Of a DNA stretch of 64,000 nt, positions 21,728 to 41,475 are shown piece after piece. Numbering within the stretch: the stretch's first letter is position 1; the number at the start of each line of letters is the position of its first letter. The notes beneath the pieces were generated by a model, which saw nothing but the letters and a program-made list of their open reading frames with translations, ran no database searches and was not told where the DNA came from. The stretch lies in the NCBI GenBank assembly GCA_903878275.1, contig CAIRHC010000002.1:29218-93217 (forward strand). The letters run 5' to 3'. The stretch comes from Candidatus Vogelbacteria bacterium (lineage in GTDB: Bacteria > Patescibacteriota > Minisyncoccia > Phycocordibacterales > XYD1-FULL-46-19). The position numbers and the translations under genes are program-made.

Positions 21728-21886
21728 TTATATCTCCTCGGCAACCTCTAAAGCATCATCTTCGTCCAAACCTTCATCGATAAGCTCCTGTACCTTCTCG
21801 GCTTGGTCCTCATCAAGATCGTGAGCCAGCATTAGCTCGGCAATCTCTTCTTCTGGTCCTTCGTCTTTGTTTATTTCGTCATTCAT
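21728..21886 (-). CDS. small, highly acidic protein (52 aa; MNDEINKDEGPEEEIAELMLAHDLDEDQAEKVQELIDEGLDEDDALEVAEEI)
   Basis: ORF under 60 aa, missing from the track. Its ATG is 5 nt downstream of the thermonuclease stop. Confidence 0.3.
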   Translation of the reverse strand: MNDEINKDEGPEEEIAELMLAHDLDEDQAEKVQELIDEGLDEDDALEVAEEI

Positions 21887-21890
21887 AACT

Positions 21891-23307: not shown

Positions 23308-23338
23308 CTTTTGTTTATTTCATCGTCCATAGATTTAT

Positions 23339-23533
23339 CTAAATTCTGTTATTCCATCCTTGCCAGATTAAAACGATAGTGAGAATCACTAAAATTACAT
23401 TAAGGACGATAACTACTCGACTTGAAAAGTCGGTTGAATTCTTGAGCCGTCGCATCATTTCGACAGAGGCTCTGCTCGAAGTATTAAGGGTTTGATCGAC
23501 CAACTCATTATCTGTCTTGTTTTTATATTCCAT
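23339..23533 (-). CDS. small protein with a C-terminal TM helix (64 aa)
   Basis: ORF between the Cas4-like gene and the HEPN-like gene. Confidence 0.3.
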   Translation of the reverse strand: MEYKNKTDNELVDQTLNTSSRASVEMMRRLKNSTDFSSRVVIVLNVILVILTIVLIWQGWNNRI

Positions 23534-23541
23534 GGGTATTT

Positions 23542-24291
23542 TTATTTAATTAACTTCGCCCTTTCCTTAGCATAACCACAAAACTCACAATCGATGGTCT
23601 CCTTGGGCATCTTGGCGCGATTAAGGCACTTCTTAATCTTAACCAACTCCGCTTCAATCCAGTCGTCCTTGCCGGTATACGGAAGGACTACGATATCAAA
23701 CTCTACCTTGCCATCAAACGCTTTTCTATCCGTTCGACCATTACAATAGACGAAGTAGCCAATATCGGACACCTTAAAACCATTCTGACGCAGTAGCCAT
23801 TGGTAAATCTCCATTTGGCGCTTATAGCCGTCTTGCCACTCGGCATCAAGATTAACTTCGCTTTCCTTAGCCGTCGCCTTATAATCCACCACGATTAACT
23901 CTTTCTTTTTATTTATCCAGATATCGTCAACCGCCCCAGTGATCAACAGATTGGTCGGTTCATGTAGATAGCGAACACCTTTGAAGTTCTCTCTCCACTC
24001 GTCCATCATTTCATGCTGAAAAGGCACCGCATCAATGCCGTACTGCTTCATTAGCGGATGAGTCGTTTTGTCGGCGCGATGAATATCAAATTCTTTCTTT
24101 AAGAGTGTATCCACTGCCTTGTTAATATTAAAAGGTGGACAGTTTGGTTGTTTAATCCCAAGACGGTTATTTAAGTAGAAACAACAAGGGCAATTAACAA
24201 ACGACTCAATACCACTGCGGCTAATCTTAAATGGCTTGTCGTCTTTGGCTTTAAATAACCCCCGAGATTTTATTTTAAATTCTTTTTTCAT
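23542..24291 (-). CDS. Cas4/RecB-like PD-(D/E)xK nuclease with a four-Cys candidate Fe-S ligand set
   Basis: D...VVDYK core motif; cysteines in CPCC (N-terminal) and CEFC (C-terminal), as in Cas4/AddB nuclease domains. Confidence 0.55.
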   Translation of the reverse strand: MKKEFKIKSRGLFKAKDDKPFKISRSGIESFVNCPCCFYLNNRLGIKQPNCPPFNINKAVDTLLKKEFDIHRADKTTHPLMKQYGIDAVPFQHEMMDEWRENFKGVRYLHEPTNLLITGAVDDIWINKKKELIVVDYKATAKESEVNLDAEWQDGYKRQMEIYQWLLRQNGFKVSDIGYFVYCNGRTDRKAFDGKVEFDIVVLPYTGKDDWIEAELVKIKKCLNRAKMPKETIDCEFCGYAKERAKLIK

Positions 24292-24307
24292 ATTTATTCC
24301 TAGTTCT

Positions 24308-25978: not shown

Positions 25979-27214
25979 CTATAACTTTGATCTAAGATTT
26001 TTAAGATTAGCCAATAATTCGTCATAGAGAATAAAATTAATATTTTTTAGCGACGATCCCAATTTTCTAAAATCTGCCGATTCCTTTTTGTTTGCAAATT
26101 GAGCACTTGTTCCCGCGATGATATAACCGCGAGGACGAACAACACGGATATCTAGAGTCTTTTTTCTTTTTACTGCACGAATATAATCATCAGAATTACG
26201 AACAATTTCATCGTTATAATTCTCAATTTGAGCAATGGCTTTTGAAATATCAGCTTTCCAATAATAATTATCGTGGTCCTCGTCGAGACTAAGTAAGGGG
26301 GTGTCATGCTTTTTTATTTCAAAAACATCCACGAAACCGTACACATCAACCAAGACAAAATCTGGGTAACTTACACTGACACTAACATTTTGTTTTTCTA
26401 TTGAAGTGATATAGTTTGCCATAAAACGAAAAACTTTTTCGCTTAAGAATTTTTGCCAATCATTTTCAGAGAGGGTCTTTTTCGCCAAATTAAGATCAAA
26501 TTCTTTTATAACTTCGTCAAGAAAAATTTTATCAGTGACAGTCTTGGTCTTTTTTATAAGCGTGGCACGTCCAATTTTAACTCCTCGTTTCTTGCCCTTG
26601 GTCGAACCCTCAAATATTTTAGGGAAGAAATCGCTAAGAGATTCGAGGTCTTCTTCATTCAGCTTTTGGGATACCTTTTTGCGCCGCAGAAGCGCCGCCA
26701 TTTCACCTCCTTTATATTCGTCAAAATCATCGGCAGAAATTCTAATTTCCTTTGGAAATTTTGTACTCAAAAAGGAAGCAACGGAACCACGCAATTCATT
26801 ATTGTTATCTTCGTTTATTCTCCCAAGTCTTATAAGGAGATTCTTAATGTCAATAAAAGGAAGGGTAACTGATATTTTATGGATACCGTTCTTCACTTTT
26901 TTTCTTTGTTTGTCTGATATTATAAACTCAAGAATCCTCCCGTTTGCCAAGTGATTTTTAAGTCCAAGGAGAAGAAAAACGCCTTTCTTGCTACCACTAA
27001 ATCCATAACCGTTCTTGTTAAGGTAAAGTCCTGATGGAACACCCTGAAAACCATCGAGCGTAATACTAGAAACCTCTTTTGCTTTTGTCGGCCGGAAGTT
27101 ATAAATCGTTTTATTTGTCTTGCGATATATCTCGCAGACACAAAAATCAGGGTCGTCTGTCGCAAAGCGTCGTTCAGGAATTTCTTGTTTTTTTATCTTT
27201 TTCATTTTTCCCAA
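25979..27214 (-). CDS. PD-(D/E)xK nuclease-domain protein, Shedu/DUF4263-like, with an N-terminal domain of unknown function
   Basis: C-terminal motifs VLVDVYGFVDVFEIKK and ...AIAQIENY (D...ExK...QxxxY). 411 aa, ending at a TAG in frame with the helicase. Confidence 0.45.
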   Translation of the reverse strand: MGKMKKIKKQEIPERRFATDDPDFCVCEIYRKTNKTIYNFRPTKAKEVSSITLDGFQGVPSGLYLNKNGYGFSGSKKGVFLLLGLKNHLANGRILEFIISDKQRKKVKNGIHKISVTLPFIDIKNLLIRLGRINEDNNNELRGSVASFLSTKFPKEIRISADDFDEYKGGEMAALLRRKKVSQKLNEEDLESLSDFFPKIFEGSTKGKKRGVKIGRATLIKKTKTVTDKIFLDEVIKEFDLNLAKKTLSENDWQKFLSEKVFRFMANYITSIEKQNVSVSVSYPDFVLVDVYGFVDVFEIKKHDTPLLSLDEDHDNYYWKADISKAIAQIENYNDEIVRNSDDYIRAVKRKKTLDIRVVRPRGYIIAGTSAQFANKKESADFRKLGSSLKNINFILYDELLANLKNLRSKL

Positions 27215-29637
27215 AGTTTAGCTAATACTTCTTTAGCCTTTTGCTCATAAATCTCAATAAGTTTTTTAGCAGAATTGACTAAGCCGAGCTCAGCTTCGAT
27301 TTTTTCCACAATTTGTTTTTGAATTTCGAGAGGAGGTGCAAATATTTCAGTTTCTTCAATTAATTTATTATATAGCCGTTCGATGGTCCCACCTTTAGTA
27401 GTAACCCAATTAATATCTTGAAAAACTAAATAAAGATATTTATTGTCTACTATTTTTCCATCGTTTTCTATCCAAACTATATTTGAATCTTGAAAATAGG
27501 CTGGCTCACCATCAAAAATAACAGTTCTGCCAATAGTCCCAGAAGTTGAAATTAAGACATCGCCTTTTTTGGGGTAAGAAAATTTAGCCTGATAATCATC
27601 AAACAATTCTTGACTAATAAATGCATCTGGATTTTTCCCAAATGTACCAATTTTATAAAAAGGGACTTTACCATCGGCACTAGTTTGGTCCTTAAAAACT
27701 CTTTTACACATGCTAACTTTCCCAACCTCTCCCAACTTCACCTTCTCCCACTCAGGATCAATCTCGATTTTCGTTTTCCAGTTTTGGGTAATTTGTTTAG
27801 CGCCGGAAATAATACCCGTATATCCTTCCAGCTCTACTACAATCTGCTTTTGGATTTCGAGAGGTGGGAGAGGGATTTTAATTGTTTTTAGATCCTTTGG
27901 ATAAACATGTGGTTGCCCACCTCCTTGCTGAAATTTATAGATGTCTTCCTGTTTTGTTTTAAGAATATAAAATAGATATTTAGTGCTAACTACATTTTTA
28001 TCGATTGATTGGATTGTCGAACAATCGGAGGCAAAAATTGGGGTATTAAAATAATTTACAAATCCAGAATAAGCACCAGAAGCGCTAACCGTGATGACTT
28101 CACCATTCCGATTTGATTCGTCGTGATAATAGGCTGGCTCTTGACCTCCCGCTATCACTGGAATATTCCCATCTTTAGTGTCTTTTTTTGTTATGGCGGA
28201 ACCTTTTATAATTTCAGCAATCTCGCCCAACTCAACCATTGGCCACTTGGCGTTAGAATAATCGGTGACAACTTGATAACGATCACCGGAAAGATTATAG
28301 TCACCGCTCTCGGCAATTTTGGATTTTTCAACCCACAAACCAAGATCCCATTCTTTTTCTCCTTTTAAATTAACTTTTTTATCCCCGGCCATTAAAGTGT
28401 CCTGCCAAATTCGAAGATAATGTAAAGCTAAAGGCAAATCACCCTGATGACCAAGAGATCTCCTCTGTGCGCCCAAATCAAAGCCGTCATCCTTTATTTT
28501 TATAAACAAAATATCCTGAGCTCTCTTTGCTAGCTCATTATCAAAAAACAAGATACTTGTTTTTACCCCAGCATAAGGATTAAACACGCCTGAGGGTAAA
28601 GACACGACAGCAAACAAGCCATCTTCAACGAGACTTTTTCGCAGTTGCTTATAGGCAGTCCCTGATTGAAAGATGATACCCTCAGGCACAATAATACCGG
28701 CTCGGCCCTTTGGTTGGAGGTGGTTCATTATGTAATCGACAAACAAAACCTCACTTCGGCTCGATTGAATACTAAACTTACTGTGCGGTTTAATGCCTCC
28801 CTTCGGTGACATAAAAGGTGGATTGGCCAGAATTACACTAAATTTGTCGTTCCAACGCTCATCGCTTGAAAGAGAATCATACTGAAAGATTTTTGGATTC
28901 TTAAATTGGTGAAGATACATATTAACTTGAGCAATACGCACCATGCCGGGATCGATGTCGTAGCCTTCAAAGTTATTCGCTAAAGCGCGCCTTTGATCCG
29001 GAGTCAGAGATTTCTCTTTTTTGTCTGGGTCGTCTTTGCCATCATGTTGCTCAAGAATATGTTTGTAAGAACTAACCAAGAAGCCACCCGTGCCACAAGC
29101 GGGATCAAGAACTTTATCATCTTTTGTTGGATTAACGACATCAACTATAAAATCAATGATGTGGCGAGGAGTACGGAATTGACCAGCGTCGCCTTGAGAG
29201 GACATTATTGATAGTAAATATTCGTAAGCGTTACCAAGCTCTTCGGGGTGAGAGTAATCAAAATAATCAATCTCTTTAAGGAATAGCCCCAAAGTTTCAG
29301 GTGAACGATACGGCAAGAAGGCAGACTTAAAGATCCCTCTAAAAAGTTCCGGCAGTTGTTTGGCTTCTGAGAATTTAAGTAGGGCCTCTGAGTAAAGATT
29401 CATGCGCTCTTGATTTCCCATGCGAGAATCCATTAAGCGAGTCCAAGCGTAACGCTCGAGACTACCGACAAAAAAGGAAGGTTCGCCACCCGCTTTAATC
29501 GCCGCCTGATCCATGTCATCCATAAACTTATAGACCAAAGCATTGGTGATTTGATCAATCTGCGAAGTCGGATTTGGTACCACTCCAACAAGCACTTGAC
29601 GAGCCGAATCAATATGTCGTTTTGTGTCAGCGTTCAT
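27202..29637 (-). CDS. type I R-M methyltransferase fused to a specificity subunit (HsdM-HsdS fusion, two TRDs)
   Basis: The N-terminal half has N6-adenine MTase motifs (DPACGTGGFLV, LANPPF). The C-terminal half has two TRD-like halves, each followed by the repeat PLPPLEIQKQIV / APPLEIQKQIV. Confidence 0.8.
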   Translation of the reverse strand: MNADTKRHIDSARQVLVGVVPNPTSQIDQITNALVYKFMDDMDQAAIKAGGEPSFFVGSLERYAWTRLMDSRMGNQERMNLYSEALLKFSEAKQLPELFRGIFKSAFLPYRSPETLGLFLKEIDYFDYSHPEELGNAYEYLLSIMSSQGDAGQFRTPRHIIDFIVDVVNPTKDDKVLDPACGTGGFLVSSYKHILEQHDGKDDPDKKEKSLTPDQRRALANNFEGYDIDPGMVRIAQVNMYLHQFKNPKIFQYDSLSSDERWNDKFSVILANPPFMSPKGGIKPHSKFSIQSSRSEVLFVDYIMNHLQPKGRAGIIVPEGIIFQSGTAYKQLRKSLVEDGLFAVVSLPSGVFNPYAGVKTSILFFDNELAKRAQDILFIKIKDDGFDLGAQRRSLGHQGDLPLALHYLRIWQDTLMAGDKKVNLKGEKEWDLGLWVEKSKIAESGDYNLSGDRYQVVTDYSNAKWPMVELGEIAEIIKGSAITKKDTKDGNIPVIAGGQEPAYYHDESNRNGEVITVSASGAYSGFVNYFNTPIFASDCSTIQSIDKNVVSTKYLFYILKTKQEDIYKFQQGGGQPHVYPKDLKTIKIPLPPLEIQKQIVVELEGYTGIISGAKQITQNWKTKIEIDPEWEKVKLGEVGKVSMCKRVFKDQTSADGKVPFYKIGTFGKNPDAFISQELFDDYQAKFSYPKKGDVLISTSGTIGRTVIFDGEPAYFQDSNIVWIENDGKIVDNKYLYLVFQDINWVTTKGGTIERLYNKLIEETEIFAPPLEIQKQIVEKIEAELGLVNSAKKLIEIYEQKAKEVLAKLWEK

Positions 29638-29641
29638 TTAT

Positions 29642-32179
29642 TTATAAGTTTGTTAATTGGTAGGCATAATCACGGACATATTGAGGGACGATCACTCGGT
29701 AGCCATTTAATTTCTGATAATCTTCAAAGTCGAAAGAGGGACAGTGATAAAAATCAGCTGGTTGATTGCGCTTCACAATGTCACGAACTTCTTCGTCAGA
29801 GATGTAAGCCTTAAAGAAGTTTTTAGCTGGTCGGTAATGGTCTTGATCAACATTATAAATATCGACAAATTTCTGCCATTCGGATTCCAAGAGGTCATCT
29901 TTCATCTCAAAGGTTTCTTTATCACCAAAAGCTACCTGCAAGAATTCTTTAACAGTCACTCGGCGGTCAACGCCAAAAATCTTACGGATCTTATCAAGAT
30001 TCAAGAAATATTTCGGCTTATCAAAAATCTGCTTTTTAGCAAAGTCTTCCGCCGCTTCCGTGTCGCCGTTCTCCCACATATTCTTTAGAGTTTCATTGCC
30101 AAGGACATCTTCTTCGACAGCTCGCTTAAAACCTTCGCGATCAATTCGCATAATCACACCCTCGGGAGTCTCAGAAATTGTGGCTAATTCATCTGAAGTC
30201 GCAAGATCGATCGGCCCCTTAAGTGGTTCCGGAGTTGGACCACCGACAGGACCATTTCCTCCCGGACCAGTTAATGGCGGGATATGGACGATGGGAAGTT
30301 TAATTTTTTCATCATACTCAAATTCATTTTCAAAATATTCACAGGTGGCGAAGAAATCGAAAAACTTAAATTTTTCTTTCGGTAGGGTAACTTTATCATT
30401 TTGATAATCGTTATATTCAAACAGCCATTTTCTCGTGCCTCGTCCTTTAATCTGAACAAAATCGGTGGGAGAAAAAACCGGACGCATTAAGGCGATGTTG
30501 AGTAGGTCTTGGCAATCATAACCAGTGGTCATCATGCCGACAGTGACAGCAATCCGCGCTTTGCTTGTGTCATAGCCTTCTGGGTGTTTTGTTTGTCCGC
30601 CAAGGCGATTGTTGGCAAAATTAATGGTCATTTGTTGAGCACTGTCTACTTGTGAAGAAACTTGCATCGCAAAATTTGATTCACTATATTGCTCTGGCCA
30701 TTTTTCAAAAGCAATTTTGTTTAATATGTTGGTCAGTCGAGCAGCGTGTTTTTGAGAGACAGCAAAGACAATTGATTTACCAAAAAGATCTACTCCTAAT
30801 TTTTTAGCCACTGGGTCATATAGCCCGTTATCAATAAAGGCTTTGCACATGGCGATATTGGTCTCATCATTAAAAATTTTCCGCTCATAGTGGCGTTCAT
30901 TAAATACCTCGTCGATGGTCTCGCCGCTTTCCGTTAGGGTATGAACGGCATAACCTTTCTCTGATAAAAGTTCAGTGGTAATTTCGGTCCGAGCATCGAC
31001 AAGTGTCGGCTTAATCAAGTAGCCTTCTTTTGCTCCAGTGTCTAAGTCATAAGAAAAAGTAGGATTACCGGATTCGCAACCAAATGTTTTATAGGTATCA
31101 ATCAAGAGTCGTCGCTCGTACTCTCTTTGACTATCAGCACCTTCAGTATCAAAGCCTCTCAAATAATTTTTAGGTGTAGCCGTTAAACCTAATTTATAGC
31201 CAACAAAGTATTCAAAAACCGCTCGACTATTACCACCGATTGAACGATGTGCTTCATCTGAAATAACTAATTCAAAATCGGTTGGTGAAAATTCTTTTTT
31301 ATAACGATCGCCAGCGAGAAAGGTTTGGATAGTAGAAACCACCACGCTAGCGTTTTGCCAAGAATCCCGGCTGTCTTTATAAATAACCGTGGCAAAATCG
31401 TGACCAAGATAAGCGGTAAACGCTTTGTAGGCTTGATCTTCCAGCTCTAAACGGTCTACCAAGAAAAGAACACGGCGAGCATTACCGGATTTTAAGAATA
31501 ATTTAATTATCGCTGCGGAAATGAGAGTCTTACCAGTGCCAGTGGCCATCTCAAAAAGAAATCGTTGCTTACCACTTTTCGCTGATTCTTGAAGAGCTTT
31601 GATCGATTGAAGTTGATAAGGACGAAGTTGCTTAATACGATTATTTTTTAAGAAGTCAGATCTCGTGGCTTCATTCTGAAAAGAAGGATCATTTATTAAT
31701 CCTGGCATTTGCGTGACGGCAACATAATTCTCATCAACTGGAGTGTTAGCTAATTCCTCAGGATTTGGAGTGTACTTTTCATATTGAGTAATTGAGTCTT
31801 GGGTTGGGAAACGAGAAATGGTGTCAGGATTACCATGCTTAGTGTCCCAGAGATAATGAATATTGCCATTTGAGAGAATGATAAAACGAGCGCCAGAGTT
31901 ACGAGCATAATTTCTCGCTTGTTCTTTGGCAGAAAGTGGATCAACTGCTTCGCGTTTCGCTTCTACCACCACCAAGGCTCGGCCATCTTTATCAAGTAAA
32001 AGAAAATCTATGAAGCCATGAGTTTCATTTTCAAAGTCATCTCCAAGGTCAGAATATTTAACACCTGGCTCAAGGCGGATATTAGCTTTGCCGTTTTTGT
32101 CATCCTCAAAACGCCAGCCAGAAGCTTCGAGAAGTTTATTGATCTTAATTCGAGCAGATGCTTCTTTAGAATTTGCCAT
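29642..32179 (-). CDS. hsdR: type I restriction enzyme R subunit (HsdR-like, 845 aa)
   Basis: N-terminal Mrr/HSDR_N-like nuclease (FIDFLLLDKDGRALVVVEAKRE), then an SF2 helicase (FLFEMATGTGKT, VISDEAHRS). Confidence 0.8.
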   Translation of the reverse strand: MANSKEASARIKINKLLEASGWRFEDDKNGKANIRLEPGVKYSDLGDDFENETHGFIDFLLLDKDGRALVVVEAKREAVDPLSAKEQARNYARNSGARFIILSNGNIHYLWDTKHGNPDTISRFPTQDSITQYEKYTPNPEELANTPVDENYVAVTQMPGLINDPSFQNEATRSDFLKNNRIKQLRPYQLQSIKALQESAKSGKQRFLFEMATGTGKTLISAAIIKLFLKSGNARRVLFLVDRLELEDQAYKAFTAYLGHDFATVIYKDSRDSWQNASVVVSTIQTFLAGDRYKKEFSPTDFELVISDEAHRSIGGNSRAVFEYFVGYKLGLTATPKNYLRGFDTEGADSQREYERRLLIDTYKTFGCESGNPTFSYDLDTGAKEGYLIKPTLVDARTEITTELLSEKGYAVHTLTESGETIDEVFNERHYERKIFNDETNIAMCKAFIDNGLYDPVAKKLGVDLFGKSIVFAVSQKHAARLTNILNKIAFEKWPEQYSESNFAMQVSSQVDSAQQMTINFANNRLGGQTKHPEGYDTSKARIAVTVGMMTTGYDCQDLLNIALMRPVFSPTDFVQIKGRGTRKWLFEYNDYQNDKVTLPKEKFKFFDFFATCEYFENEFEYDEKIKLPIVHIPPLTGPGGNGPVGGPTPEPLKGPIDLATSDELATISETPEGVIMRIDREGFKRAVEEDVLGNETLKNMWENGDTEAAEDFAKKQIFDKPKYFLNLDKIRKIFGVDRRVTVKEFLQVAFGDKETFEMKDDLLESEWQKFVDIYNVDQDHYRPAKNFFKAYISDEEVRDIVKRNQPADFYHCPSFDFEDYQKLNGYRVIVPQYVRDYAYQLTNL

Positions 32180-32184
32180 AATCT

Positions 32185-33381
32185 TTATTTTTTAAATTCT
32201 TGAAGCTTAAAATCAATTTTATATAAATAAACCTCCGTGTCTTTTATTTTTTTCAAGGCGTAATACAGTCTTTCGTCATACTGCGAGGCGATAATGATTC
32301 CTTTTACCGTTTTGCCATTAGTTTTATTTTCTTCAATCCAACCCATATACCGAGCAAGTTGCCCAACAGTATCATCGCTCGTCTTTCCCTTTTTCAATTC
32401 GATAACAACATAATTTTTGGTCTCTTTTTCTTGCGCCAAGATGTCAATTCGTCCGATACCGGTCTGATACTGCTGGCTTTTTAATTCACCCTCCTCTTCG
32501 ATAAGGTCATATCTTTGGCCCAACTCAGTTCTATCCCAGTTTTCTATTAAAAAATCTTCAAGTTGACTCTCCATATAAAAAACAGACGGATCAACCAAAA
32601 CTTCAGAGGTTGTGTCCTCTTTATTTACGGAGACTTCTTTAAAACCACCCCATGGGGCATAGTCATCTTCATGCTCAATCTTCCAAAGAGGCTTAGCTTC
32701 CGAAGAATACAGAAAATCGGAAATAGTTCGAGCTGAGTAATTAAGGCCAAAGCTATTAAAGCCTCTCATTATTTCGATATTAGAAAAAATTATTTTCTTT
32801 CCAATAGAATCTTTATCGAAATCTGGAGCCCCCTCAAATCCAAAATACTCAAAAACTTTTCTTCGATCCTTAAGTGAGATAACACTTAAGTTGCTGACGG
32901 GGTTAAAAGCGGCCAGCATCGCGTTTATGGCATTACCACTTGGACCAGTAAGATTATTACGATGCCCCTCGTTAAGTTTATATACCTCATTTATAAGTTC
33001 CGCCCTCTTATCAACATCTTTTTCTGTAAAAATACTGTTCAGCAGGTTGGATAAATTCTTATTTATTTTTATCTCATTAAACATTCTGCGCCACGCCCCC
33101 TGTGGAATCATCGCTTTGGCGACAGCTTCACTTTCTTTGGTATTGCCCTTACCGTTTCGATCCAAAATTTTAATAATTTGATCCGTCTCCGTATCGTTTA
33201 GTTCTTCTCTGTCACCACTCATTATTTTAGTCACCCAAAAATCATGAAATTGTTTACTTTGTTTTTCCCAAACAGCATTCTTGGCCTCAGTGTCATAATT
33301 GGCAAGAAAGCTATTAAATAATTGATTAAGTTGTTGTTTTTCCATTGGATTACCTATTATTAGAGCCTTATTTATCAACAC
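32185..33381 (-). CDS. protein with a C-terminal PD-(D/E)xK (NucS/RecB-like) nuclease-fold domain; first gene of the island
   Basis: ...GRIDILAQEKETKNYVVIELKKGKTSDDTVGQLARYMGWI. Confidence 0.45.
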   Translation of the reverse strand: MLINKALIIGNPMEKQQLNQLFNSFLANYDTEAKNAVWEKQSKQFHDFWVTKIMSGDREELNDTETDQIIKILDRNGKGNTKESEAVAKAMIPQGAWRRMFNEIKINKNLSNLLNSIFTEKDVDKRAELINEVYKLNEGHRNNLTGPSGNAINAMLAAFNPVSNLSVISLKDRRKVFEYFGFEGAPDFDKDSIGKKIIFSNIEIMRGFNSFGLNYSARTISDFLYSSEAKPLWKIEHEDDYAPWGGFKEVSVNKEDTTSEVLVDPSVFYMESQLEDFLIENWDRTELGQRYDLIEEEGELKSQQYQTGIGRIDILAQEKETKNYVVIELKKGKTSDDTVGQLARYMGWIEENKTNGKTVKGIIIASQYDERLYYALKKIKDTEVYLYKIDFKLQEFKK

Positions 33382-33725
33382 AAAAGATACTTGATACTTG
33401 ACAAGAGTTTAGCACTTTTAGCAAATTTTTACAAAAAATATTTTTAGGCTGGAGGGTTACTGATCCCTGCCGGTTTTAGAGCGATTTCTAATAGTAGCCA
33501 CGGGAGCGGATAAGTCCTTTACGTATGGTACCGTTGAATCTTCAGAGTCCCGAATCGAACAACTCCCCCTACCCCTCCTCACTGAGTAGCCATAAATCAA
33601 TAAAAACTTTTCTTTGTAGATAATAAAATAAATTAACTTTTATTTGGTCGAAAATTATCTCACCCTCTGGCGTTGCTTCTAGTCCAAGTAACGCCTTTTA
33701 TTATTTAGTTATTAACCAATAAAAT

Positions 33726-34034
33726 ATGAGTGATACTCTAACAATCAAAACAAATTACTCTGGCTCAGAACATACTCGAGATGATGTTAAGCAACAAATC
33801 TTGGAGCGTTTTGGACCAGAACTCGCCAAAGAATACGATCCGTACACCAACTGTATGACTTTGGCACAATGGGCTTCAAGAGGCTACCGTGTTAAACCTG
33901 GCGAGAAATCTTTGAAATCCAAGGTTATCGTGGAGAAAAAAGATGAGAATGAAAAAACTGTAGCGTCCTTCTTTCGTATTTGCCATCTTTTTTATTACCC
34001 ACAAGTAAAACGCCTACCGAATTATGGAAACTAA
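33726..34034 (+). CDS. hypothetical protein (102 aa)
   Basis: ORF that overlaps the next gene by 11 nt. Confidence 0.35.
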   Translation: MSDTLTIKTNYSGSEHTRDDVKQQILERFGPELAKEYDPYTNCMTLAQWASRGYRVKPGEKSLKSKVIVEKKDENEKTVASFFRICHLFYYPQVKRLPNYGN

Positions 34035-34707
34035 CACCGTCAGTCGTGGAGCAGTTAGTATCGGCGAAGCGTTACAGTCGCTTGATGTCTTCAAAGTATC
34101 GATCAACCAGTTACTCCTTCAGCGTCGATTTTTTGTTGATAAAATCAAACCAATGCTCAAGCAAGATCAGGACTACTATATTATCAATGGTAAAAAATCA
34201 TTGAGTAAGGGTGGCGCAGAAAAACTCTGTCAGATTTATGGCCTAACCGCTTCGTTTGAGCGTGATTATGACAGCCTTCAATCATTCCCTGAAACAAAAG
34301 GAGTCGTGATCTTCAAATGTACGCTAAGAAGAGCAGACGGTTCTGTGGTCGGTGAAGGACGTGGGGCGTCAACGCTTGAGAAAAATAACGGCGATATTAA
34401 TAAATGTTTAAAGCTCGCTGAGAAAAGTTCCATGATTTGCGCGACGTTGAGATCCACTTTTTTGTCGTCAGATTTTACTCAAGATTTAGAAGATATGCCT
34501 AGCTTGGGCGGTCCTGTTCAAATCGAAGAAGTAGCCAGAGCTAATGAGGCCCTAATGATTAGTGACCGTCAGAAGTCTTATTTGACCCAGCTCCTATATG
34601 ACAACATTAATGACGAGAATGAGCGAGAAGAATCGTTAAACTCTTTAACCACCCTAACCAGGCACGAAGCTAGCGAAATGATAGCTAGTTTTGTAGGAGT
34701 TAAATAG
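34024..34707 (+). CDS. hypothetical protein (227 aa)
   Basis: ORF; no family recognised. Confidence 0.4.
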   Translation: METNTVSRGAVSIGEALQSLDVFKVSINQLLLQRRFFVDKIKPMLKQDQDYYIINGKKSLSKGGAEKLCQIYGLTASFERDYDSLQSFPETKGVVIFKCTLRRADGSVVGEGRGASTLEKNNGDINKCLKLAEKSSMICATLRSTFLSSDFTQDLEDMPSLGGPVQIEEVARANEALMISDRQKSYLTQLLYDNINDENEREESLNSLTTLTRHEASEMIASFVGVK

Positions 34708-34728
34708 CTAAAGAATTAAGTTTTGTCG

Positions 34729-34912
34729 CTATCGAGTGCGTGGGTGTAGAGATGCGAATCTATCGCTGGGACAAACTCTAAGGAACCAAGGGTGGCAACA
34801 CCTGAAGAGTTTGCGAGAGTTGCCAATGCCAAATCTGGCCCTATGCCTGCGCACCTGATAGCGACAAAACAACTTAAAAAGACACACCTTAACTGGTGTG
34901 TCTTTTTTTTGC
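34729..34912 (+). ncRNA. candidate structured small RNA (about 150 nt) ending in a strong intrinsic terminator
   Basis: A 14-bp long-range stem (gttttgtcgctatc / gatagcgacaaaac) encloses internal hairpins. The terminator is agacacacc-ttaa-ctggtgtgtct followed by T8. The 62-aa minus-strand ORF here is implausible. Confidence 0.3.
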
Positions 34913-34925
34913 TTCAACCAAGCTA

Positions 34926-35357
34926 CTAACCAAAATCAGCTCTCATCAATCCTTCCTTTTTCTGTTGATAATCAGTGTCGCTAGAGAGAGATTCAGTTGA
35001 GATAAGTAACTGGTTTGAGTAAATATCAGTCACTGAATCAAAATCTATATCATGGGCGGGTAGATACTCGCTACCATTAAAATTATAATGAGTTGAATCT
35101 TGGTAATTGATTGAGATAAGACAGGTGTTTAATTGGCGATTAAAATGATAGGTTGGTTCACCAAGAATTCGTCCGGCAATAGCTTCTTTTGATTTGTATT
35201 GATCAAAAAATTTCTGTCCATCAATGTTACATTTTCTAATTAGCCCTAAAGATTGTTGGCCAGTAAAATAATAGGCCATAAAAATTAGCCCTGCCACCAA
35301 AAGGATAGCCACGGCGACTTTAACCCAGTTTTTTAATAAAAGATTCTTTAATATCAT
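34926..35357 (-). CDS. membrane-anchored hypothetical protein (143 aa)
   Basis: N-terminal TM helix (VAVAILLVAGLIFMAYYF). Confidence 0.4.
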   Translation of the reverse strand: MILKNLLLKNWVKVAVAILLVAGLIFMAYYFTGQQSLGLIRKCNIDGQKFFDQYKSKEAIAGRILGEPTYHFNRQLNTCLISINYQDSTHYNFNGSEYLPAHDIDFDSVTDIYSNQLLISTESLSSDTDYQQKKEGLMRADFG

Positions 35358-35408
35358 TACTAAAGTATCAATGATACTAGCTAAAAAGTAAAATTGGTAA
35401 ACAACTGA

Positions 35409-36839
35409 CTATAACCCAAAAAATGATCTAAACCTCGACCAGAAACTAGTCTTCTTGTCACCAGACGCAAATGTAGTACTGCTATTTTTTACCTCAGGCT
35501 GAATTAATGCTTGTTGTTTGGAATTACTAATGGCTTTAAGTTGATCTCTAAAATCACCAGCAAAAAGACTTCTGCTCATCCAGCCTGTTATTATCTCTTT
35601 ATTATCATTTCTTGCTTTAACTTGATACCAATCTCCGCTACCATCAATACTAATAATGGAAACTTCAGCTGTTTCGGCATAGTACCTAATCACCTCACAA
35701 GACATCCCCGGACATTCCCTAAAAGCTCCTGGGATTTTTAAAATCGCTACGATTCCATCAATACCCGTTGCCGTGGAAGAAGCACCACTTTCAGATTTAT
35801 TATTAATATCAGGAGCCTTAATCTTTTTCTCTAACTTAGGAACCACTGGTGTTATTTTAGGTGTTAGGACACAAACGGTGCTATTAGAATTAAATTGATA
35901 ACCAACTTTACAGTCGCAAATTAACCCCCCTTCATTATTTTTGTCTCCACCCCATATACTATTTTTACCATATTCATCCTGACAAATCTGGTCATTCGTT
36001 TTTGTCGGAGCAACTGCTTCAGCCTTTTGTCTGGCCAAGAGTAGGGCTTTTTGATAAGCGATTTCTGCTTCGATATTACTTGCCCTTATTTGTCCCCGCA
36101 AAGCCTCTGACCCAGAGCTGATATTTTGGGGAACAACTGGCGGAACAATACAGCCAGATCCAGAGTCTCTAACATAACCATCTTTGCACCCACAAGTTGT
36201 ACCACCCACCCATTTAAAGTTTTGCCCAAATTTTTCACTGCAAATCTGATCCTGTGACTTTGAGGGAGTTATTGCCGGAGGTGGAGTTTCCCTCATAATT
36301 GAGCATTGTAAAAGAGCCGTAACACACCTTTCTTTACTTCCTAAAAGGCTCACAAAAACATCAAAGTCCAGAGAAGTTGGGTCAGACGGAATCCTCGCAC
36401 CCTGAAGACAATCAGAATTACTTAACCGACATTGAGTATAACTAGAATTTGAACTACCCGCAGCGTCATATTGTTTTTCAATACCGTCTAATTTATAGAA
36501 ATAATCTAATTTAATTTTAAAAATCTCTTGAGCATGAGTAGCATCAGCGGCTAGTTGATCTCTTGCTCGTTGATCCTGAATTCTTTGATCCCTTGTACAA
36601 TTATAGATTGCTTCATTTTCAAGGCCAGAACCAGAAAGCCCCCGGGCTTCGTATTCCGCCCTTATCGATGACAAGCAATCACTGGCGCGAATTTTATCTG
36701 GCGAAATAAATAAGCAAAAGAAAAAAATAAAGAGACTCAAATAAATTCTTTTCTTCATAATGTTGTTTATTAACTGATAATTTTTAATATTAGAACGCAA
36801 AAAGCTCTTAGCCAGATTGATGGTTTTGAAGCCATCCAT
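35409..36839 (-). CDS. secreted Cys-rich repeat protein with a C-terminal SH3b-like domain
   Basis: Signal peptide; two internal repeats (QICSEKFGQNFKWVGGTTCGCKDGYV / QICQDEYGKNSIWGG...LICDCKVGYQF); C-terminal GSGDWYQVKAR...ITGWMSRSL. Confidence 0.5.
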   Translation of the reverse strand: MDGFKTINLAKSFLRSNIKNYQLINNIMKKRIYLSLFIFFFCLFISPDKIRASDCLSSIRAEYEARGLSGSGLENEAIYNCTRDQRIQDQRARDQLAADATHAQEIFKIKLDYFYKLDGIEKQYDAAGSSNSSYTQCRLSNSDCLQGARIPSDPTSLDFDVFVSLLGSKERCVTALLQCSIMRETPPPAITPSKSQDQICSEKFGQNFKWVGGTTCGCKDGYVRDSGSGCIVPPVVPQNISSGSEALRGQIRASNIEAEIAYQKALLLARQKAEAVAPTKTNDQICQDEYGKNSIWGGDKNNEGGLICDCKVGYQFNSNSTVCVLTPKITPVVPKLEKKIKAPDINNKSESGASSTATGIDGIVAILKIPGAFRECPGMSCEVIRYYAETAEVSIISIDGSGDWYQVKARNDNKEIITGWMSRSLFAGDFRDQLKAISNSKQQALIQPEVKNSSTTFASGDKKTSFWSRFRSFFGL

Positions 36840-36999
36840 ATCCCTTTCGAGATACGACCCGTGAAGGCAAAACTCTGACTAAGAGTTCTTTATGCTTCAC
36901 GGGATTTTCACCATGCCCAGCACCGCTGGGTTTAGGTTACTTTTAACTATTTAATTGTCCTTTTATGGTACCATGCCAAATTGAAATCGTCCAACAAAA

Positions 37000-37788
37000 A
37001 TGTTAGTCTGGGGTATGAATATGGAGGAACTAGACTTTTTTACTACTGACAAAACCCGATTCGACTATTTCACTAAAAAAAAGTTGACCGAGGAAACGGT
37101 AGCTTGGATGGTGAACCAGTTATTTCAAGGGTCCTACGAAGAATCATTTTTTGAATTTATCAATGAATATAGAGAGTATGTGGAACTTCCCAAAGCTAAC
37201 TTCAAAGATAAATCAATCGCTCTTAGCTGGAATAAATTAAATGAAGCCCTCTTTAGCTTGGCTGATTTTTTAACTAAAGAGAAAGCTGAGTTCATTTTAG
37301 ATCCGAGGGAGACCAAATCCGAACAGGAATCTTACTATATCCTTAACCCATCAAAGAAAAATCTGACGAAGAATCGAGAAAAACTACAAAAGATCGGTGA
37401 GGCGATTAAAACCAATTACCACAGCTTTTTAAGTAACGCCGGGAAAAAGTGGGTACCTCAACCGAAGATTGATATTAATATTGACGAAAGAACCGGAGTT
37501 TACCGAATAGATACTGACGGTAAAAAATTAACATATCGCTGTTTAAGTCCCCAAAGCGAAATTTTTAAAACAGTCTTATATCTAGCGAGAAGTAGTACTC
37601 CGATCAAAACGAGAGAGTTGGCCGAGAGATCAAGGCAGTACACCAGAACAGTTAGAGATGCAATAAAAAGGTTCAATAATAATTTTAGAAAGTATCTAAA
37701 GGTTAATCATGACCTTGTCAGGACGATAAAAGACGACTCCGTGAGCTATCAGTATTTTATTGAAAGAGACAAATATAACATAATCTAA
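37000..37788 (+). CDS. hypothetical protein (262 aa)
   Basis: ORF; a terminator-like hairpin (aggcac-gaggat-gtgcct, T-run) follows at about 37808-37836. Confidence 0.4.
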   Translation: MLVWGMNMEELDFFTTDKTRFDYFTKKKLTEETVAWMVNQLFQGSYEESFFEFINEYREYVELPKANFKDKSIALSWNKLNEALFSLADFLTKEKAEFILDPRETKSEQESYYILNPSKKNLTKNREKLQKIGEAIKTNYHSFLSNAGKKWVPQPKIDINIDERTGVYRIDTDGKKLTYRCLSPQSEIFKTVLYLARSSTPIKTRELAERSRQYTRTVRDAIKRFNNNFRKYLKVNHDLVRTIKDDSVSYQYFIERDKYNII

Positions 37789-38100
37789 CAACTTCTATTT
37801 TGGGCATGAGGTAGGCACGAGGATGTGCCTTTTTTGATGTCTTAAAATGGCTTAAATAAACGGATTTTTAATGATTAGAAAAAAGATCGTGCCTGCGTAA
37901 CACTCTTTTTTTTAAGCTTCTTTTGAACCAGACTTAGGTCATAACATTGTCATTAATTTAAGTTCGCCATGGAGGCCATCGAAGTCCCTTATCGGGTCGA
38001 TGAGTTCTACCTCCATGGAACTCATCGTGCCGATAGCGGATTTTTATTTTGGCCAAGGTCGAAGAAATTATTAAAAGAATTAATCAATAAAATATAAATT

Positions 38101-38400
38101 ATGAAAACAAAAAAGAAGGGTACAAAACTGATGGCTAAAAAAGAAATCACGAAAGAAAACTTGGGTTTAGGTCGTTTCAGGGGCGTAACCCTATGTCTGG
38201 GAAAGATTCAAGACGGCCTCCATTTTCATTTACTTATCGACAAGACGGGTGAGAAGCATGAAAGTTTAGTCGTAATAACTCTAAACGATCAACCAATTGC
38301 TATTTATGACTTAGAGTGTGCCGAGAAGAATTTCTGGCCAATCATAAAAAAGATGACCCTCAGCAAAGATAAATTAGTAGCCACGAAGCAAATAAACTAA
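38101..38400 (+). CDS. hypothetical protein (99 aa)
   Basis: ORF. Confidence 0.35.
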   Translation: MKTKKKGTKLMAKKEITKENLGLGRFRGVTLCLGKIQDGLHFHLLIDKTGEKHESLVVITLNDQPIAIYDLECAEKNFWPIIKKMTLSKDKLVATKQIN

Positions 38401-38538
38401 TCGTATGGGAAATAATAATTACATAATATCGTTAGCTAATGAAGAGCTCCTTGATGCTCAGCGCTCTTTTGACGAAGGCAATGGTGAAGAAACTCCTGAG
38501 GAAGTATCACCAAACCAAGGTAAATTATTCGAGTAAAG

Positions 38539-38960
38539 ATGTTTGACAATGTTGGGAAAACCCTGATTTCGGGACCACCAGGTAAAACGGTTCCGACAAC
38601 CCCCACTTTGGCGTTGAGAGCGCGGAGTAGGTAAACGAAACATTATCATAAGGATGATGAAGGGAGTTTCAGGAGTCGATATCGACAGCTGGGAAAATGC
38701 CATCCGACCTGCACCCAGCCGTTTAATCGGTTCCGGAGCCTCCTAAGGTTGCGGTTGAGGCTATGTCGAGAAGTTATGAAACTCAATGGATGAAACTTCT
38801 CTAAAGGGGCCTGCAACACGCAACCACTCCCAACTATATAGTTATTATCAGTCCTTTTAATCATCTAGGGATGTTATCACGGCCATCTGGCGTTGTTACA
38901 CTTAAGAAGCTAAGCAGTAGCCCTAAGAATGTAACTTGTAATCTTTAGCCACATAGCCCC
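38539..38960 (+). pseudogene. decayed remnants of a RarA/MgsA-like AAA+ ATPase gene (frameshifts and internal deletions)
   Basis: Frame a reads MFDNVGKTLISGPPGKTVPTTPTLALRA (FDxVVGQ...GPPGTGKTT..A collapsed). Frame b reads HATTPNYIVIISPFNHLGMLSRPSGVVTLKKLSS, compared from memory with the RarA sensor region [28 protein letters not shown]. The minus-strand ORFs here have junk composition. Confidence 0.4.
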
Positions 38961-39024
38961 AGAATGCTCCCCCCTCCCAGGGATTAAAAGGTTAGGTCGG
39001 GCAAATTAATTAAAATTGTAACTT

Positions 39025-39258
39025 ATGTCACAAGACAACAAAGTAGAAGTAAAAATCAAAAAAGCGTTGAGGATTACCAAACCAGTGAGAATAAACAGGG
39101 AACTTCACAAATTACTAAAGGAAAAAGCCGCCAAGGTTGAGGTAACAATGTCTTTTCTATTAGATGAGATAATTCAAGAGTACTACCAAATCGGCTATCG
39201 ACTTGAAGATTATCAAGATAACCAAATTAATCATGAAGAGCTTAGAACGACGATTTAA
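39025..39258 (+). CDS. small ribbon-helix-helix-like protein, a candidate antitoxin or regulator
   Basis: VRINRELHKLLKEKAAKVEVTMSFLLDEII resembles the RHH beta-strand plus helix pattern. Confidence 0.35.
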   Translation: MSQDNKVEVKIKKALRITKPVRINRELHKLLKEKAAKVEVTMSFLLDEIIQEYYQIGYRLEDYQDNQINHEELRTTI

Positions 39259-39529
39259 AATTAGAGCCGAAAACGATCCACACCATTACAGCATTGTCCA
39301 TTTCAATGGAGCGGTTCTTGGTCAGAACTTTTCTCGTAAAATTATCCTTTACTGGTTCAACAAATTAGTTGATCCCGATGATTACGACAAAAAAGATAAG
39401 AAAGCCTTGATTGAAGATCTCTTGGTCAAGACAAAACCGGTTGAGGCGGGTATAAAATCGGGGGTAACTCACGCGTGGAGGGCCTTTATTATCAAAAGTA
39501 ATACTAATCACCATGCCAGAACTATTTAA
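39233..39529 (+). CDS. hypothetical protein overlapping the RHH gene, a candidate toxin partner
   Basis: ATG at 39233 (MKSLERRFKIRAEND...), overlapping the upstream gene by 26 nt in another frame. Confidence 0.3.
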   Translation: MKSLERRFKIRAENDPHHYSIVHFNGAVLGQNFSRKIILYWFNKLVDPDDYDKKDKKALIEDLLVKTKPVEAGIKSGVTHAWRAFIIKSNTNHHARTI

Positions 39530-39690
39530 CAAAATTAAAGGGGATAAGATTACCCAAAACCTGAAGATATCTCGCCAACTAAATAATGAATCATTAGAAG
39601 CAATGACCAAGCTGGGAGAGGTCCTAAAAAGGATTCATGGACGACTCATAGCAAATGGTTATATAATGAGCGATAATTAACTAGATAAAA

Positions 39691-41430
39691 ATGGCAACTC
39701 TAAATACAAAAGATCAAGAAATATTAAAAGATATCACCGCTGGTAAATACCGCGATTATTATTTTGTGTACGACCGTCGATCAACGGACGAGCCTGATAA
39801 CCAGAAAAATTCTCTTAGTTATCAAAAAATTGAGAATTTAAAGTTTGCTCATGACAAAAAACTACTAATTGCACCTATCACTATCGTTGGCTTCTGCACA
39901 GACGGAATAATTTCGGAGAAACACTCAGGTTTTAAAGAAGATGGGAATTTTACTATTACTCCTGACGGCAAAGTTCAATACAGTATTTCTCGCATCAAAT
40001 TCCATCGAATGGTTTACTTCCTAAACAAAAAACTGCTTAAGGGAGTTATCTTTCTCTGCTACGATCGAGCCAGTCGTAACAGTGGCGACGACGCCATTAT
40101 TAATAAGTTAATCGCCAATGGTGTAGATTTACGCTTTGCTCAAACAAATTACGAAAAGAATAGCTCAGGTTTTCTTCATCGTTCGGTTGATAGCATGTTT
40201 TCTGGCCATTATTCACGAGTTGTTGGTGAAAAAGTTAAACTAGCTCAAGAAAAATTAAGAAACGAAGGCGTTTGTGTCTATAAAGCGCCAGTCGGCTACT
40301 TAAACACTGGAAAAGCTGAATATAAACCGATTGATTCTGTCCGTGGTCCAATTATTACAGAACTTTTCGAGCTATATTCCACTGGCGAGTGGAGCCTTGC
40401 CGACTTAGCTCGTTGGGCTAATAAAGCAGGATTAACAACATCACCAAGTCGCCATCGCCGGACACCAGAAGAAATGGCCGAGGACGATGACGAAGAAACT
40501 GGTGATAAAAGGGATAGCGAGATACCCGTCTCGCGTCCGATTATTCCTCAAAGTATTCACGGGATACTATCAAATCGTTTTTATCTTGGCTTAATACGAG
40601 GTAGAGATGGACAATACCTAAAAAGCACTAGCCACAAGGCACTAGTTACCGAAGAATTGTTTAATAAAGTTCAAATGGTCTTGAGAGGCAAAAATATCAG
40701 CGCTCATTATCTTAATAAATTACCACTGGCAAATCGTGGCTTTGTTCGTTGTGGCGGTTGTCGTCGAGTTTATACTCCTTACGAACAAAAAGGGATAACT
40801 TTCTTTCGATCTAACTGCCAGCGAGGTTGTGAGAATAAAAAGAAAAACTTTAACCTATCCTTTCTCGAAGAAAAAGTTAGTGGATTAATGGCGAAGTTGT
40901 CTTTTACTGATGATGAATTGTCTGAAATCGATGCCGAATTTAATGACAAGATCATCAGCGCTGACGAGAAAAAGAAAGAAAAGTTAAGACAGAATGACAG
41001 GATTAAAAGAAAACTCCAAGAAGATCTTGAGTATATCCGCTCAAACAAAATTTCTTTATTAAGATCAAAAGTTTTCTCTCCAGAATCTTTGGCCACCGAA
41101 GAAGGCCGTCTTCATACTGAATTTTTGTCCTGTTTGGTTATCGAGAAGTATGCCGAGCTCTCCATGCATAAAATGTTCCAAGATGCCTTGAAACTTTCCG
41201 AACTGCTAAAAAACGGCTCAAAGTATTACGATTTAGCTCTTTCTAACGAAAAAGAAGAAATTGCCAAAATAATCTTTTACGAACTGAATATCACCGATAA
41301 TACGTTGGATTATAAGTGTCGAGAAGGTTTTAAATTTCTCGAAGACAGATTCCGAAATGTTGGCGGGCCCACGGGGATTCGAACCTCGGTTATCCGTTTT
41401 GGAGACGGACGTTCTACCACTGAACTATAG
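39691..41430 (+). CDS. large serine recombinase (resolvase, recombinase and zinc-ribbon domains); its 3' end is encoded antisense to tRNA-Trp
   Basis: YFVYDRRSTDEPDNQ (catalytic Ser), a recombinase domain, and CGGCRRVYTPYEQKG...CQRGC. The last 23 codons overlap the tRNA. Confidence 0.8.
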   Translation: MATLNTKDQEILKDITAGKYRDYYFVYDRRSTDEPDNQKNSLSYQKIENLKFAHDKKLLIAPITIVGFCTDGIISEKHSGFKEDGNFTITPDGKVQYSISRIKFHRMVYFLNKKLLKGVIFLCYDRASRNSGDDAIINKLIANGVDLRFAQTNYEKNSSGFLHRSVDSMFSGHYSRVVGEKVKLAQEKLRNEGVCVYKAPVGYLNTGKAEYKPIDSVRGPIITELFELYSTGEWSLADLARWANKAGLTTSPSRHRRTPEEMAEDDDEETGDKRDSEIPVSRPIIPQSIHGILSNRFYLGLIRGRDGQYLKSTSHKALVTEELFNKVQMVLRGKNISAHYLNKLPLANRGFVRCGGCRRVYTPYEQKGITFFRSNCQRGCENKKKNFNLSFLEEKVSGLMAKLSFTDDELSEIDAEFNDKIISADEKKKEKLRQNDRIKRKLQEDLEYIRSNKISLLRSKVFSPESLATEEGRLHTEFLSCLVIEKYAELSMHKMFQDALKLSELLKNGSKYYDLALSNEKEEIAKIIFYELNITDNTLDYKCREGFKFLEDRFRNVGGPTGIRTSVIRFGDGRSTTEL

Positions 41431-41434
41431 GCCC
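41361..41434 (-). tRNA. tRNA-Trp (anticodon CCA)
   Basis: rc reads GGGCCTATAGTTCAGTGGTAGAACGTCCGTCTCCAAAACGGATAACCGAGGTTCGAATCCCCGTGGGCCCGCCA. The anticodon loop is CTCCAAA and CCA is encoded. Confidence 0.75.
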
Positions 41435-41436
41435 AA

Positions 41437-41475
41437 GTGCTTGAGGCTTCCCAAGCACTTTTATCTTAGCACAAA
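41437..41475 (+). terminator. terminator-like hairpin just past the recombinase/tRNA junction
   Basis: aagtgcttg-aggcttccc-caagcactt followed by ttttatctt. Confidence 0.35.

Follow-up and report, generated by a model that had tools for sequence, protein, structure and literature searches.

A 28-kb island probably integrated at a tRNA-Trp gene by a large serine recombinase with an in-gene attachment site

Serine integrases are key genome-engineering tools. In one survey, characterised serine systems integrate within open reading frames (ORFs) and disrupt them, and their cores are typically 5–8 bp; tyrosine integrases use tRNA genes, and the prophage attB (chromosomal attachment site) cores in tRNA genes measure 25–76 bp (PMC8092301). 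The same survey does not describe serine attachment (att) sites inside the integrase gene. The so-called 'suicidal' integrases have an in-gene attP (the attachment site of the element), target tRNA genes and leave pieces of their gene at both ends of the element, and they have been called exclusive to archaea (PMC8371274). Mycobacteriophages with integration-dependent immunity carry attP inside the repressor gene, and integration alters the C-terminus of the protein (PMC8092301). Here, we have analysed a 64,000-nt stretch of contig CAIRHC010000002.1 from a Candidatus Vogelbacteria bacterium (hereafter the window), in which the gene of a large serine recombinase (LSR) runs antisense into a tRNA-Trp gene and probably marks the right end of a 28.2-kb integrative island. 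We have not found an LSR integrative island with in-gene attP at tRNA 3' ends described. Our literature search, which is not proof of absence, found neither a serine integrase with an in-gene attP nor tRNA-targeting LSR islands in bacteria of the candidate phyla radiation (CPR), and in a large LSR survey (PMC10083194) the term 'tRNA' does not occur.

The junctions and the genes that form them are listed below.

12327..13184, + strand: miaA (tRNA dimethylallyltransferase), left chromosomal flank (Pfam IPPT, E=5e-72)
13184..13190: attL core GGCGGGC, identical to the attR core (sequence and automated core finding)
13191..13285, + strand: displaced 3' end of the recombinase gene, that is, the P' arm of attP and the tail codons ..LSTWIYELSSYYDDIKIGLEKLEKAATSAFS with stop (tail profile search)
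39691..41430, + strand: LSR ORF in its integrated (attR) form, ATG start, 579 aa
41362..41368: attR core GGCGGGC (sequence and automated core finding)
41361..41434, - strand: tRNA-Trp(CCA), intact chromosomal target, B' side of attB (ARAGORN and Rfam)

The initial annotation had described a 579-aa recombinase read antisense through a complete tRNA-Trp, and this was confirmed: the ORF is present, and the tRNA is called by both ARAGORN and Rfam (67.1 bits with the tRNA model at 41364..41434, gathering score 29). The two overlap by 70 nt, which hold the final 22 sense codons and the stop of the recombinase. The ORF enters the tRNA gene via the encoded CCA end and stops 4 bases before the tRNA 5' end; its V-G-G-P-T is the translation across the CCA, the discriminator and the 3' acceptor strand. 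Residues 1–559 are encoded by the element and the last 20 (PTGIRTSVIRFGDGRSTTEL) by the antisense strand of tRNA-Trp. From the recombinase family, 80 genomic loci were fetched, with flanks limited to 10 kb. The recombinase ORF overlaps a tRNA in 39 of these 80 independent loci, usually by 62–68 nt, and the overlap in the window is thus not due to chance.

A partial tRNA copy, of the kind left by tyrosine integrases, had been expected at the left end of the element. None exists in the window: neither a search for direct and inverted repeats nor a 21-nt tRNA probe with 3 mismatches allowed found a second copy. The left junction could be located because the displaced recombinase tail right after it matched a tail profile. 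Among the best 120 homologues, the C-termini that follow the conserved ..NRF...(C/G)DPT fall into two main classes, a native tail (..WLSEL......I..SI.EL..; 57 homologues) and a fused class that reads, for example, DPTGNRTPI.., the translation of antisense tRNA T-arms (48 homologues). A hidden Markov model (HMM) built from the 57 native tails was searched against the six-frame translation of the window and gave a single significant match (E=1.6e-6) at ~13211–13300 on the + strand, the strand predicted. The match falls in a frame that starts at 13181, encodes IGGLSTWIYELSSYYDDIKIGLEKLEKAATSAFS and ends with the stop codon 13283–13285; a six-frame regular-expression search for WLSEL had missed it because the window copy reads WIYEL. 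The displaced tail contains the conserved DNA motif TGGATTTACGAAC at 13199–13211, unique in the window, and a terminator-like hairpin at 13258–13279, which after integration stands behind miaA. A second near-match to the P' motif (59980–59992) was rejected, as it falls within an ordinary gene and is no more than chance would be expected to give.

Since both GGCGGGC cores could be located, the island measures 28,178 bp from core to core. These 7 bp are all that the two junctions have in common, in line with a serine recombinase. On the tRNA strand, the attR core corresponds to the final four bases of the acceptor stem, the discriminator G and the CC of tRNA-Trp, and the first base of the attL core is overlapped by the TAG stop of miaA (13182–13184). 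Joining 39691–41368 to 13191–13285 yields, in frame, a 590-aa protein with the native tail of the family; the reconstructed attP context is gaaatgttGGCGGGCtttctacttgg and the predicted circle junction of the island GAAATGTTGGCGGGCTTTCTACTTGG. When the outer flanks are joined instead, the predicted empty site is AAAATATAGGCGGGCCCACGGGG, in which the miaA stop overlaps the core and directly abuts a complete 73-nt tRNA-Trp that still folds as such. Integration leaves the tRNA whole, since the core covers no more than its last seven bases, which are identical. The earlier suggestion that the att core reconstitutes the tRNA thus held for its final GCCCGCC, not for much of the tRNA.

Empty counterparts of this site could be identified in relatives of the host, which was judged to be bacterial (Paceibacterota, CPR) because MiaA homologues at 75–80% identity are annotated as Candidatus Paceibacterota. 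The gene order upstream, topA-relA/spoT-parB-tRNA-Leu-miaA, is common to the window and three related loci (L084, L085 and L086), and in all three the recombinase is absent between miaA and tRNA-Trp. Relatives lacking the intervening genes had been named beforehand as a check, and both L086 and L085 have miaA beside tRNA-Trp, which speaks for insertion. In L086 (MiaA 77% identical), miaA (6001–6891) abuts tRNA-Trp (6891–6963, - strand), which is followed by rpmG; the junction reads ...tggattgaaacttaGGCGGGCCCACGAGG, and the attB predicted from the window, ...tggataaaaatataGGCGGGCCCACGGGG, has the same architecture. The site of L085 is also empty, with 33 nt between miaA and tRNA-Trp. It might be argued that the recombinase belongs to the resident chromosome and overlaps tRNA-Trp by chance, with no mobile element involved. 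Nothing beyond the overlap itself speaks for this, and we count the relatives with miaA beside tRNA-Trp as refuting it; the displaced tail 28 kb away and the fusion of family members elsewhere to five other kinds of tRNA also stand against it. We consider its chance of being correct negligible.

Two observations concern the same site. In L084, the closest relative (MiaA 80% identical), a 1.3-kb insert (6337–7628) lies between miaA and tRNA-Trp and encodes a 271-aa ORF and a GIY-YIG protein, unlike the island of the window; the miaA/tRNA-Trp site appears to be an insertion hotspot. On the right flank, a 52-aa ORF (43605–43763, - strand) resembles ribosomal protein L33 (rpmG). This gene adjoins tRNA-Trp in L086, whereas in the window a 659-aa beta-propeller gene (41509–43488) intervenes.

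The proposal that the overlap represents an integration junction is supported by attL, the in-frame join and the empty sites in relatives, and the overlap is attR of the island. We propose, with a probability of about 0.9, that 13184–41368 is a 28.2-kb integrative island that was inserted at the 3' end of tRNA-Trp by its own LSR, with attP inside the recombinase gene. The element lies to the left of this junction and includes the upstream defence genes, in agreement with the first description, its attL being at 13.19 kb. In this mechanism, attP would be situated ~31 codons upstream of the recombinase stop, and the gene in the free circle would encode the 590-aa protein, ending in a conserved long alpha-helix (..GG-LSTWIYEL...SAFS). 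The corresponding attB would be formed by the miaA stop codon abutting the final bases of tRNA-Trp. Recombination of attP with attB within the common 7-bp core GGCGGGC would leave the helix-coding piece at the left extremity of the island (attL) and fuse what remains of the recombinase gene with tRNA-Trp in antisense (attR), and the recombinase of the integrated copy would lose its C-terminal helix and gain 20 tRNA-dictated residues. By analogy with the known LSR mechanism, a 2-bp staggered cut would be made at a dinucleotide in the centre of the core, after which the subunits would rotate.

The window protein is an LSR that is remote in sequence from the characterised integrases. The Recombinase domain PF07508 (E=5.6e-10, residues 219–332) is its sole Pfam match at E<=0.01; for all homologues among the matches listed, both PF00239 (Resolvase) and Recombinase domains are precomputed. 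It also matches the PHROGs integrase family phrog_95 (E=7e-33), whereas the NCBIfam XisF match reached 37 bits against a cutoff of 375, and a sequence search of PDB gave one weak match, the catalytic domain of TP901-1. The catalytic-serine motif and zinc-ribbon cysteines pointed out initially were borne out: S31, R29, C354, C357, C376 and C380 are invariant in family alignments of 32 and 47 sequences, and the motif Y27-x-R29-x-S31-T-D together with R126/S128/R129 is invariant across the family. The AlphaFold2 model of the 590-aa form (mean predicted local distance difference test score, pLDDT, 78) has beta strands at 352–388, followed by long paired helices at 407–451 and 464–488. With Foldseek, full-length matches to the SPbeta, phiC31, LI and Bxb1 integrases were obtained (E=2e-13 to 4e-9), with identities of 12–16% over full-length structural alignments and up to 20% over partial chains. 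The native tail in this model is one long predicted helix (residues 562–589, pLDDT 72–85), and residues 557–579 of the 579-aa form were modelled at pLDDT<50 with no secondary structure. On these models, integration swaps a predicted 28-residue helix for 20 tRNA-dictated residues that are predicted to be disordered. The family was not found on PLSDB plasmids or in IMG/VR, and among INPHARED phages only matches of 25–28% identity could be observed.

Compared with the LSRs of phages and other elements (phiC31, Bxb1, A118/LI, SPbeta SprA and TP901-1), the window family has the same architecture of catalytic serine, recombinase domain and zinc ribbon with coiled-coil insertion, as well as a very short core (7 bp), no long direct repeats and an integrase gene at one end of the element. 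It differs in that it targets the tRNA 3' end and leaves the tRNA intact, has attP in the integrase ORF, and possesses an extra C-terminal sub-domain with the tail helix (~492–590). Because attP lies inside the ORF, the C-terminus differs between the excised and integrated states. The closest analogue is found in the archaeal 'suicidal' (SSV1-type) tyrosine integrases, which share the in-gene attP, the tRNA targets and the splitting of the gene to both ends. However, these are archaeal enzymes of tyrosine chemistry whose integrated copy is presumed inactive, whereas the window enzyme is a serine recombinase in a bacterial host and displaces only the last 31 of 590 codons; the integrated gene keeps 559 of 590 residues and all domains, catalytic and DNA-binding, in one ORF, and the tail helix alone is lost. 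In the mycobacteriophage immunity systems, it is the repressor that is split, by a tyrosine integrase, and a degradation tag is removed; in the window the recombinase itself is split and no degradation-tag logic is evident. Finally, Islander/TIGER-type and P4-like islands resemble the window island in the tRNA 3'-end site, adjacent integrase, functional tRNA and defence or accessory cargo, whereas the tyrosine integrase and tRNA-fragment repeat of the Islander type are both missing here and the core is 7 bp. The family thus combines tRNA 3'-end targeting without damage, retargeting via a short core and an attP in its own reading frame, and would represent a bacterial, serine-recombinase counterpart of 'suicidal' integration.

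The survey of family loci extended these observations to other genomes. All 40 nearby tRNAs lie on the strand opposite to the recombinase (the 39 overlapped ones and that of L018, 51 nt past the stop), and their identities are Glu(UUC) in 23, Glu(CUC) in 12, Ala in 3, Leu in 1 and Ser in 1. The tail profile detected 18 orphan tails, distributed over 14 of the 80 loci; every one is on the + strand and lies 3.4–9.8 kb upstream of the recombinase start. The attL/attR cores of other loci measure 5–15 nt and are located at the tRNA 3' acceptor strand (in L007, TTTTTGTGACCCCAC); the tRNA-Glu core is GTGACCCCAC, compared with GGCGGGC for tRNA-Trp. When gene and remnant were joined at the core, an in-frame native tail resulted in 14 of 17 pairs, and in 13 of 13 with a core of at least 6 nt. 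These sequence comparisons indicate that the family has moved to at least six tRNA identities through changes in its short core. On a neighbour-joining tree, native and fused states are interspersed, which argues that they interconvert; the two tails look like states of one kind of element and not traits of particular clades.

Support for an attachment site inside the ORF also came from synonymous positions. The sequence TGTGACCC..TGGCTTTC(A/C)GAAC is conserved across 20 native-tailed genes and 23 orphan tails. In loci whose GC content ranges from 33 to 59%, all 20 native genes have T at the third position of the Leu/Ile codon (CTT in 17), and Glu is encoded by GAA in 19 of 20. Such conservation of synonymous positions indicates a constraint at the DNA level, of the kind that an att arm bound by the recombinase would impose on the ORF. 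By-eye dyad symmetry and a 5-bp outward shift of TC(A)GAAC in attP relative to the tRNA T-arm were suggestive but inconsistent between loci.

Several points weigh against the proposed island. First, the empty sites come from relatives (MiaA 77% identical) and none from the same species. Second, no excised circle or attP junction was found in viral or JGI metagenome collections, and present-day mobility is unproven: the exact 26-nt attP junction had no match in IMG/VR or JGI metagenomes, and a 25-nt tRNA-Trp pattern had none in GTDB genomes or JGI metagenomes. Third, no recombination directionality factor (RDF), which LSRs need for excision, was identified. In addition, non-CPR members of the family (Bacteroidota, Proteobacteria and others) are always native-tailed, even on Mb-sized chromosomal contigs, and a simple model in which native means excised therefore fails to account for them. 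Isolates of Mucilaginibacter, Dokdonia and Kordiimonas are among the carriers of family members.

The lack of an attP or excised form in IMG/VR and the JGI metagenomes would also fit a different history, in which the island is a fixed fossil, its tail-less recombinase is inactive as in 'suicidal' integration, and the tail swap has no regulatory meaning. The predicted disorder of the fused tail is consistent with this, and arrays of orphan tails together with a decayed second recombinase (L033, L009 and L072) show decay in place. On the other hand, the recombinase gene of the window is intact and has kept every family-invariant residue, and the attL tail is still open, in frame and equipped with its own terminator. 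Furthermore, the 39 independent fused genes, with ~50% mutual identity, are all full length, and native genes are mixed with fused ones on the tree; both points argue for turnover that continues. A fossil is possible but, in our opinion, somewhat unlikely.

The altered C-terminus of the integrated recombinase might have consequences. The promoter-like site of tRNA-Trp lies at 41492–41463, and the fused recombinase gene converges on the tRNA. The tail swap, convergent transcription of the tRNA and the fact that the recombinase mRNA is complementary to tRNA-Trp over its last 70 nt could together alter the activity or expression of the recombinase, and any such change after integration would couple the state of the enzyme to the state of integration. 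The in-gene att site might thus represent a built-in state switch: the free-circle recombinase with its helix may integrate, and the integrated version without it may be shut off or, with a conserved 55-aa partner protein encoded next to it, be biased towards excision. If so, directionality would be written into the structure of the gene and not come solely from a separate factor. A further reading concerns the non-CPR genomes, in which the in-gene site might act as a landing pad for cassettes that lack a recombinase, and each captured cassette would bring a replacement tail; the result would be an integron-like array of defence genes split by core-plus-tail scars (L036, L037 and L033). Taken jointly, switch and landing pad are a tentative suggestion that we regard as rather doubtful. 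The in-gene attP makes the role of the C-terminal helix in integrase directionality directly testable in this family.

The 55-aa protein gene and other landmarks of the island interior are as follows.

13282..39000: island cargo (Pfam, PADLOC and Rfam)
13959–16604, - strand: C39-family peptidase, 239-aa ORF and radical-SAM/4Fe-4S enzyme in a row (Pfam)
16897–19454: two-component system of response regulator and 7TM-GAF histidine kinase (Pfam)
21891–33381, - strand: dense defence block (Pfam and PADLOC)
36819–36938, - strand: LOOT RNA (Rfam RF03000; 77 bits, gathering score 46.4, full model length)
39025..39258, + strand: small Arc/ribbon-helix-helix (RHH)-like regulator (phrog_3180 Arc-like repressor, E=9e-5; phrog_11622, E=3.6e-5)
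39513..39680, + strand: gene of the conserved 55-aa protein, directly upstream of the recombinase (motif LSxETxxALxELGxVLxxIHxRLxSEGY)

Homologues of the 55-aa protein could be identified in 16 other loci, of both native and fused tail states, and 15 of the 16 have a same-strand copy directly upstream of the recombinase; two copies are located downstream on the opposite strand (the only one of L036 and the second one of L064). The protein had no Pfam, NCBIfam or PHROG match. Its conserved position makes it a candidate accessory or directionality factor.

With regard to the remaining cargo, the C39 peptidase and radical-SAM genes look like a maturation cluster for a ribosomally synthesised and post-translationally modified peptide (RiPP) or a bacteriocin. 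The defence block contains an SNase/SNc+LTD candidate, an AbiU2-like HEPN protein, Shedu SduA, a PDC-S02/NucS-like nuclease, a Cas4-like nuclease with a GajB-like UvrD helicase, and a type I restriction-modification system (fused M+S, and R). Methyltransferase and hypothetical genes are also part of the cargo. A decayed rarA pseudogene noted at first was not found; the ORFs at 38458–38864 have no Pfam match. Among 29 island proteins scanned with Pfam, no tyrosine integrase and no second integrase could be detected; the Pfam searches of island ORFs also gave no match to capsid, tail, terminase or lysis genes, nor to relaxase, coupling protein, type IV secretion or replication genes. PHROGs searches with ten ORFs returned only the integrase, the Arc-like regulators and one family without known function. 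Some relatives possess a RepSA/G2P-like Rep (L020), or Replic_Relax and TrwB-like genes.

Alternatively, the 28 kb might be a composite in which only ~33.7–41.4 kb belongs to the element of the recombinase, and the defence, RiPP and two-component blocks arrived via separate events or as recombinase-less cassettes with their own core-plus-tail site. Elsewhere in the family, several tail remnants lie 0.6–1.2 kb apart (four in L033 and two in L009) or are separated by defence genes (L036 and L037). Other elements measure only 5–11.5 kb, though the 10-kb flank limit bounds what was visible, and the cargo genes of the window are not common to the other loci. Against such an origin, the window has one tail remnant and one P' motif only, and neither a second integrase nor a tRNA fragment is present, nor is the core context repeated internally. 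We therefore consider a composite unlikely and favour a single island. An antisense-tRNA-fused recombinase together with an orphan 'WLSEL' tail provides a simple signature for the exact delimiting of islands that carry defence genes in CPR/Patescibacteria.

Some individual loci of the family showed additional arrangements. Four non-CPR loci whose recombinases keep the native tail have a second orphan core-plus-tail 1.2–2.4 kb downstream (L036 at 6683, L037 at 9623, L063 at 12937 and L064 at 14040, all on the + strand). Two of the four were annotated. In L036, an AbiEii-like ATPase lies between the recombinase and the orphan tail and an OLD-family nuclease just beyond; in L037, the corresponding genes encode a helix-turn-helix protein and a PBECR3 nuclease. 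This layout looks like cassettes separated by att scars. The orphan-tail arrays of L033 (four tails, 3376–6151) and L009 (two, at 1310 and 2161), spaced 0.6–1.2 kb, are both located upstream of a recombinase fused to tRNA-Glu, and two left arms of L033 are mutually similar (..GTTCTGAAC..GGTGCCCTGAAATAC..ATAGCTCTT..).

In L025 (1880–2100), the recombinase ends in ..CDPTSQ and a stop. Two copies of the core GTGACCCTAC enclose an insert of 159 nt that contains a terminator-like hairpin, and tRNA-Glu starts with the second copy; L025 thus has a minimal insert at the att site. In L072 (9971–16748), the recombinase has a tail that is foreign to the family (..CEEILTLARTYFEQN); after it come a second, decayed serine recombinase (15160–16194) and then tRNA-Glu (16676–16748, - strand). 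This order indicates tandem accretion of elements at one tRNA, a process that certainly occurs; L011 and L040 look similar. The sequence GTTGTACCTATGTTGTACC was found just left of a minus-strand tRNA in two unrelated loci (L045, ~9120–9178; L057, ~19662–19721), 3.7–8 kb downstream of native-tailed recombinases, and could be an arm site that belongs to a different integrative element.

Within the window, the LOOT RNA overlaps the start of a 476-aa ORF (35409–36839) with a weak SH3_3 match; the function of the LOOT motif is not stated in the main text of PMC5737381. Outside the island, a perfect 24-bp inverted repeat with a 4-nt spacer (56092–56143) overlaps the 3' end of tRNA-Lys (56027–56100) and extends just past it, and two 199-nt direct repeats (76% identity, 386 nt apart) are present at 63102–63686.

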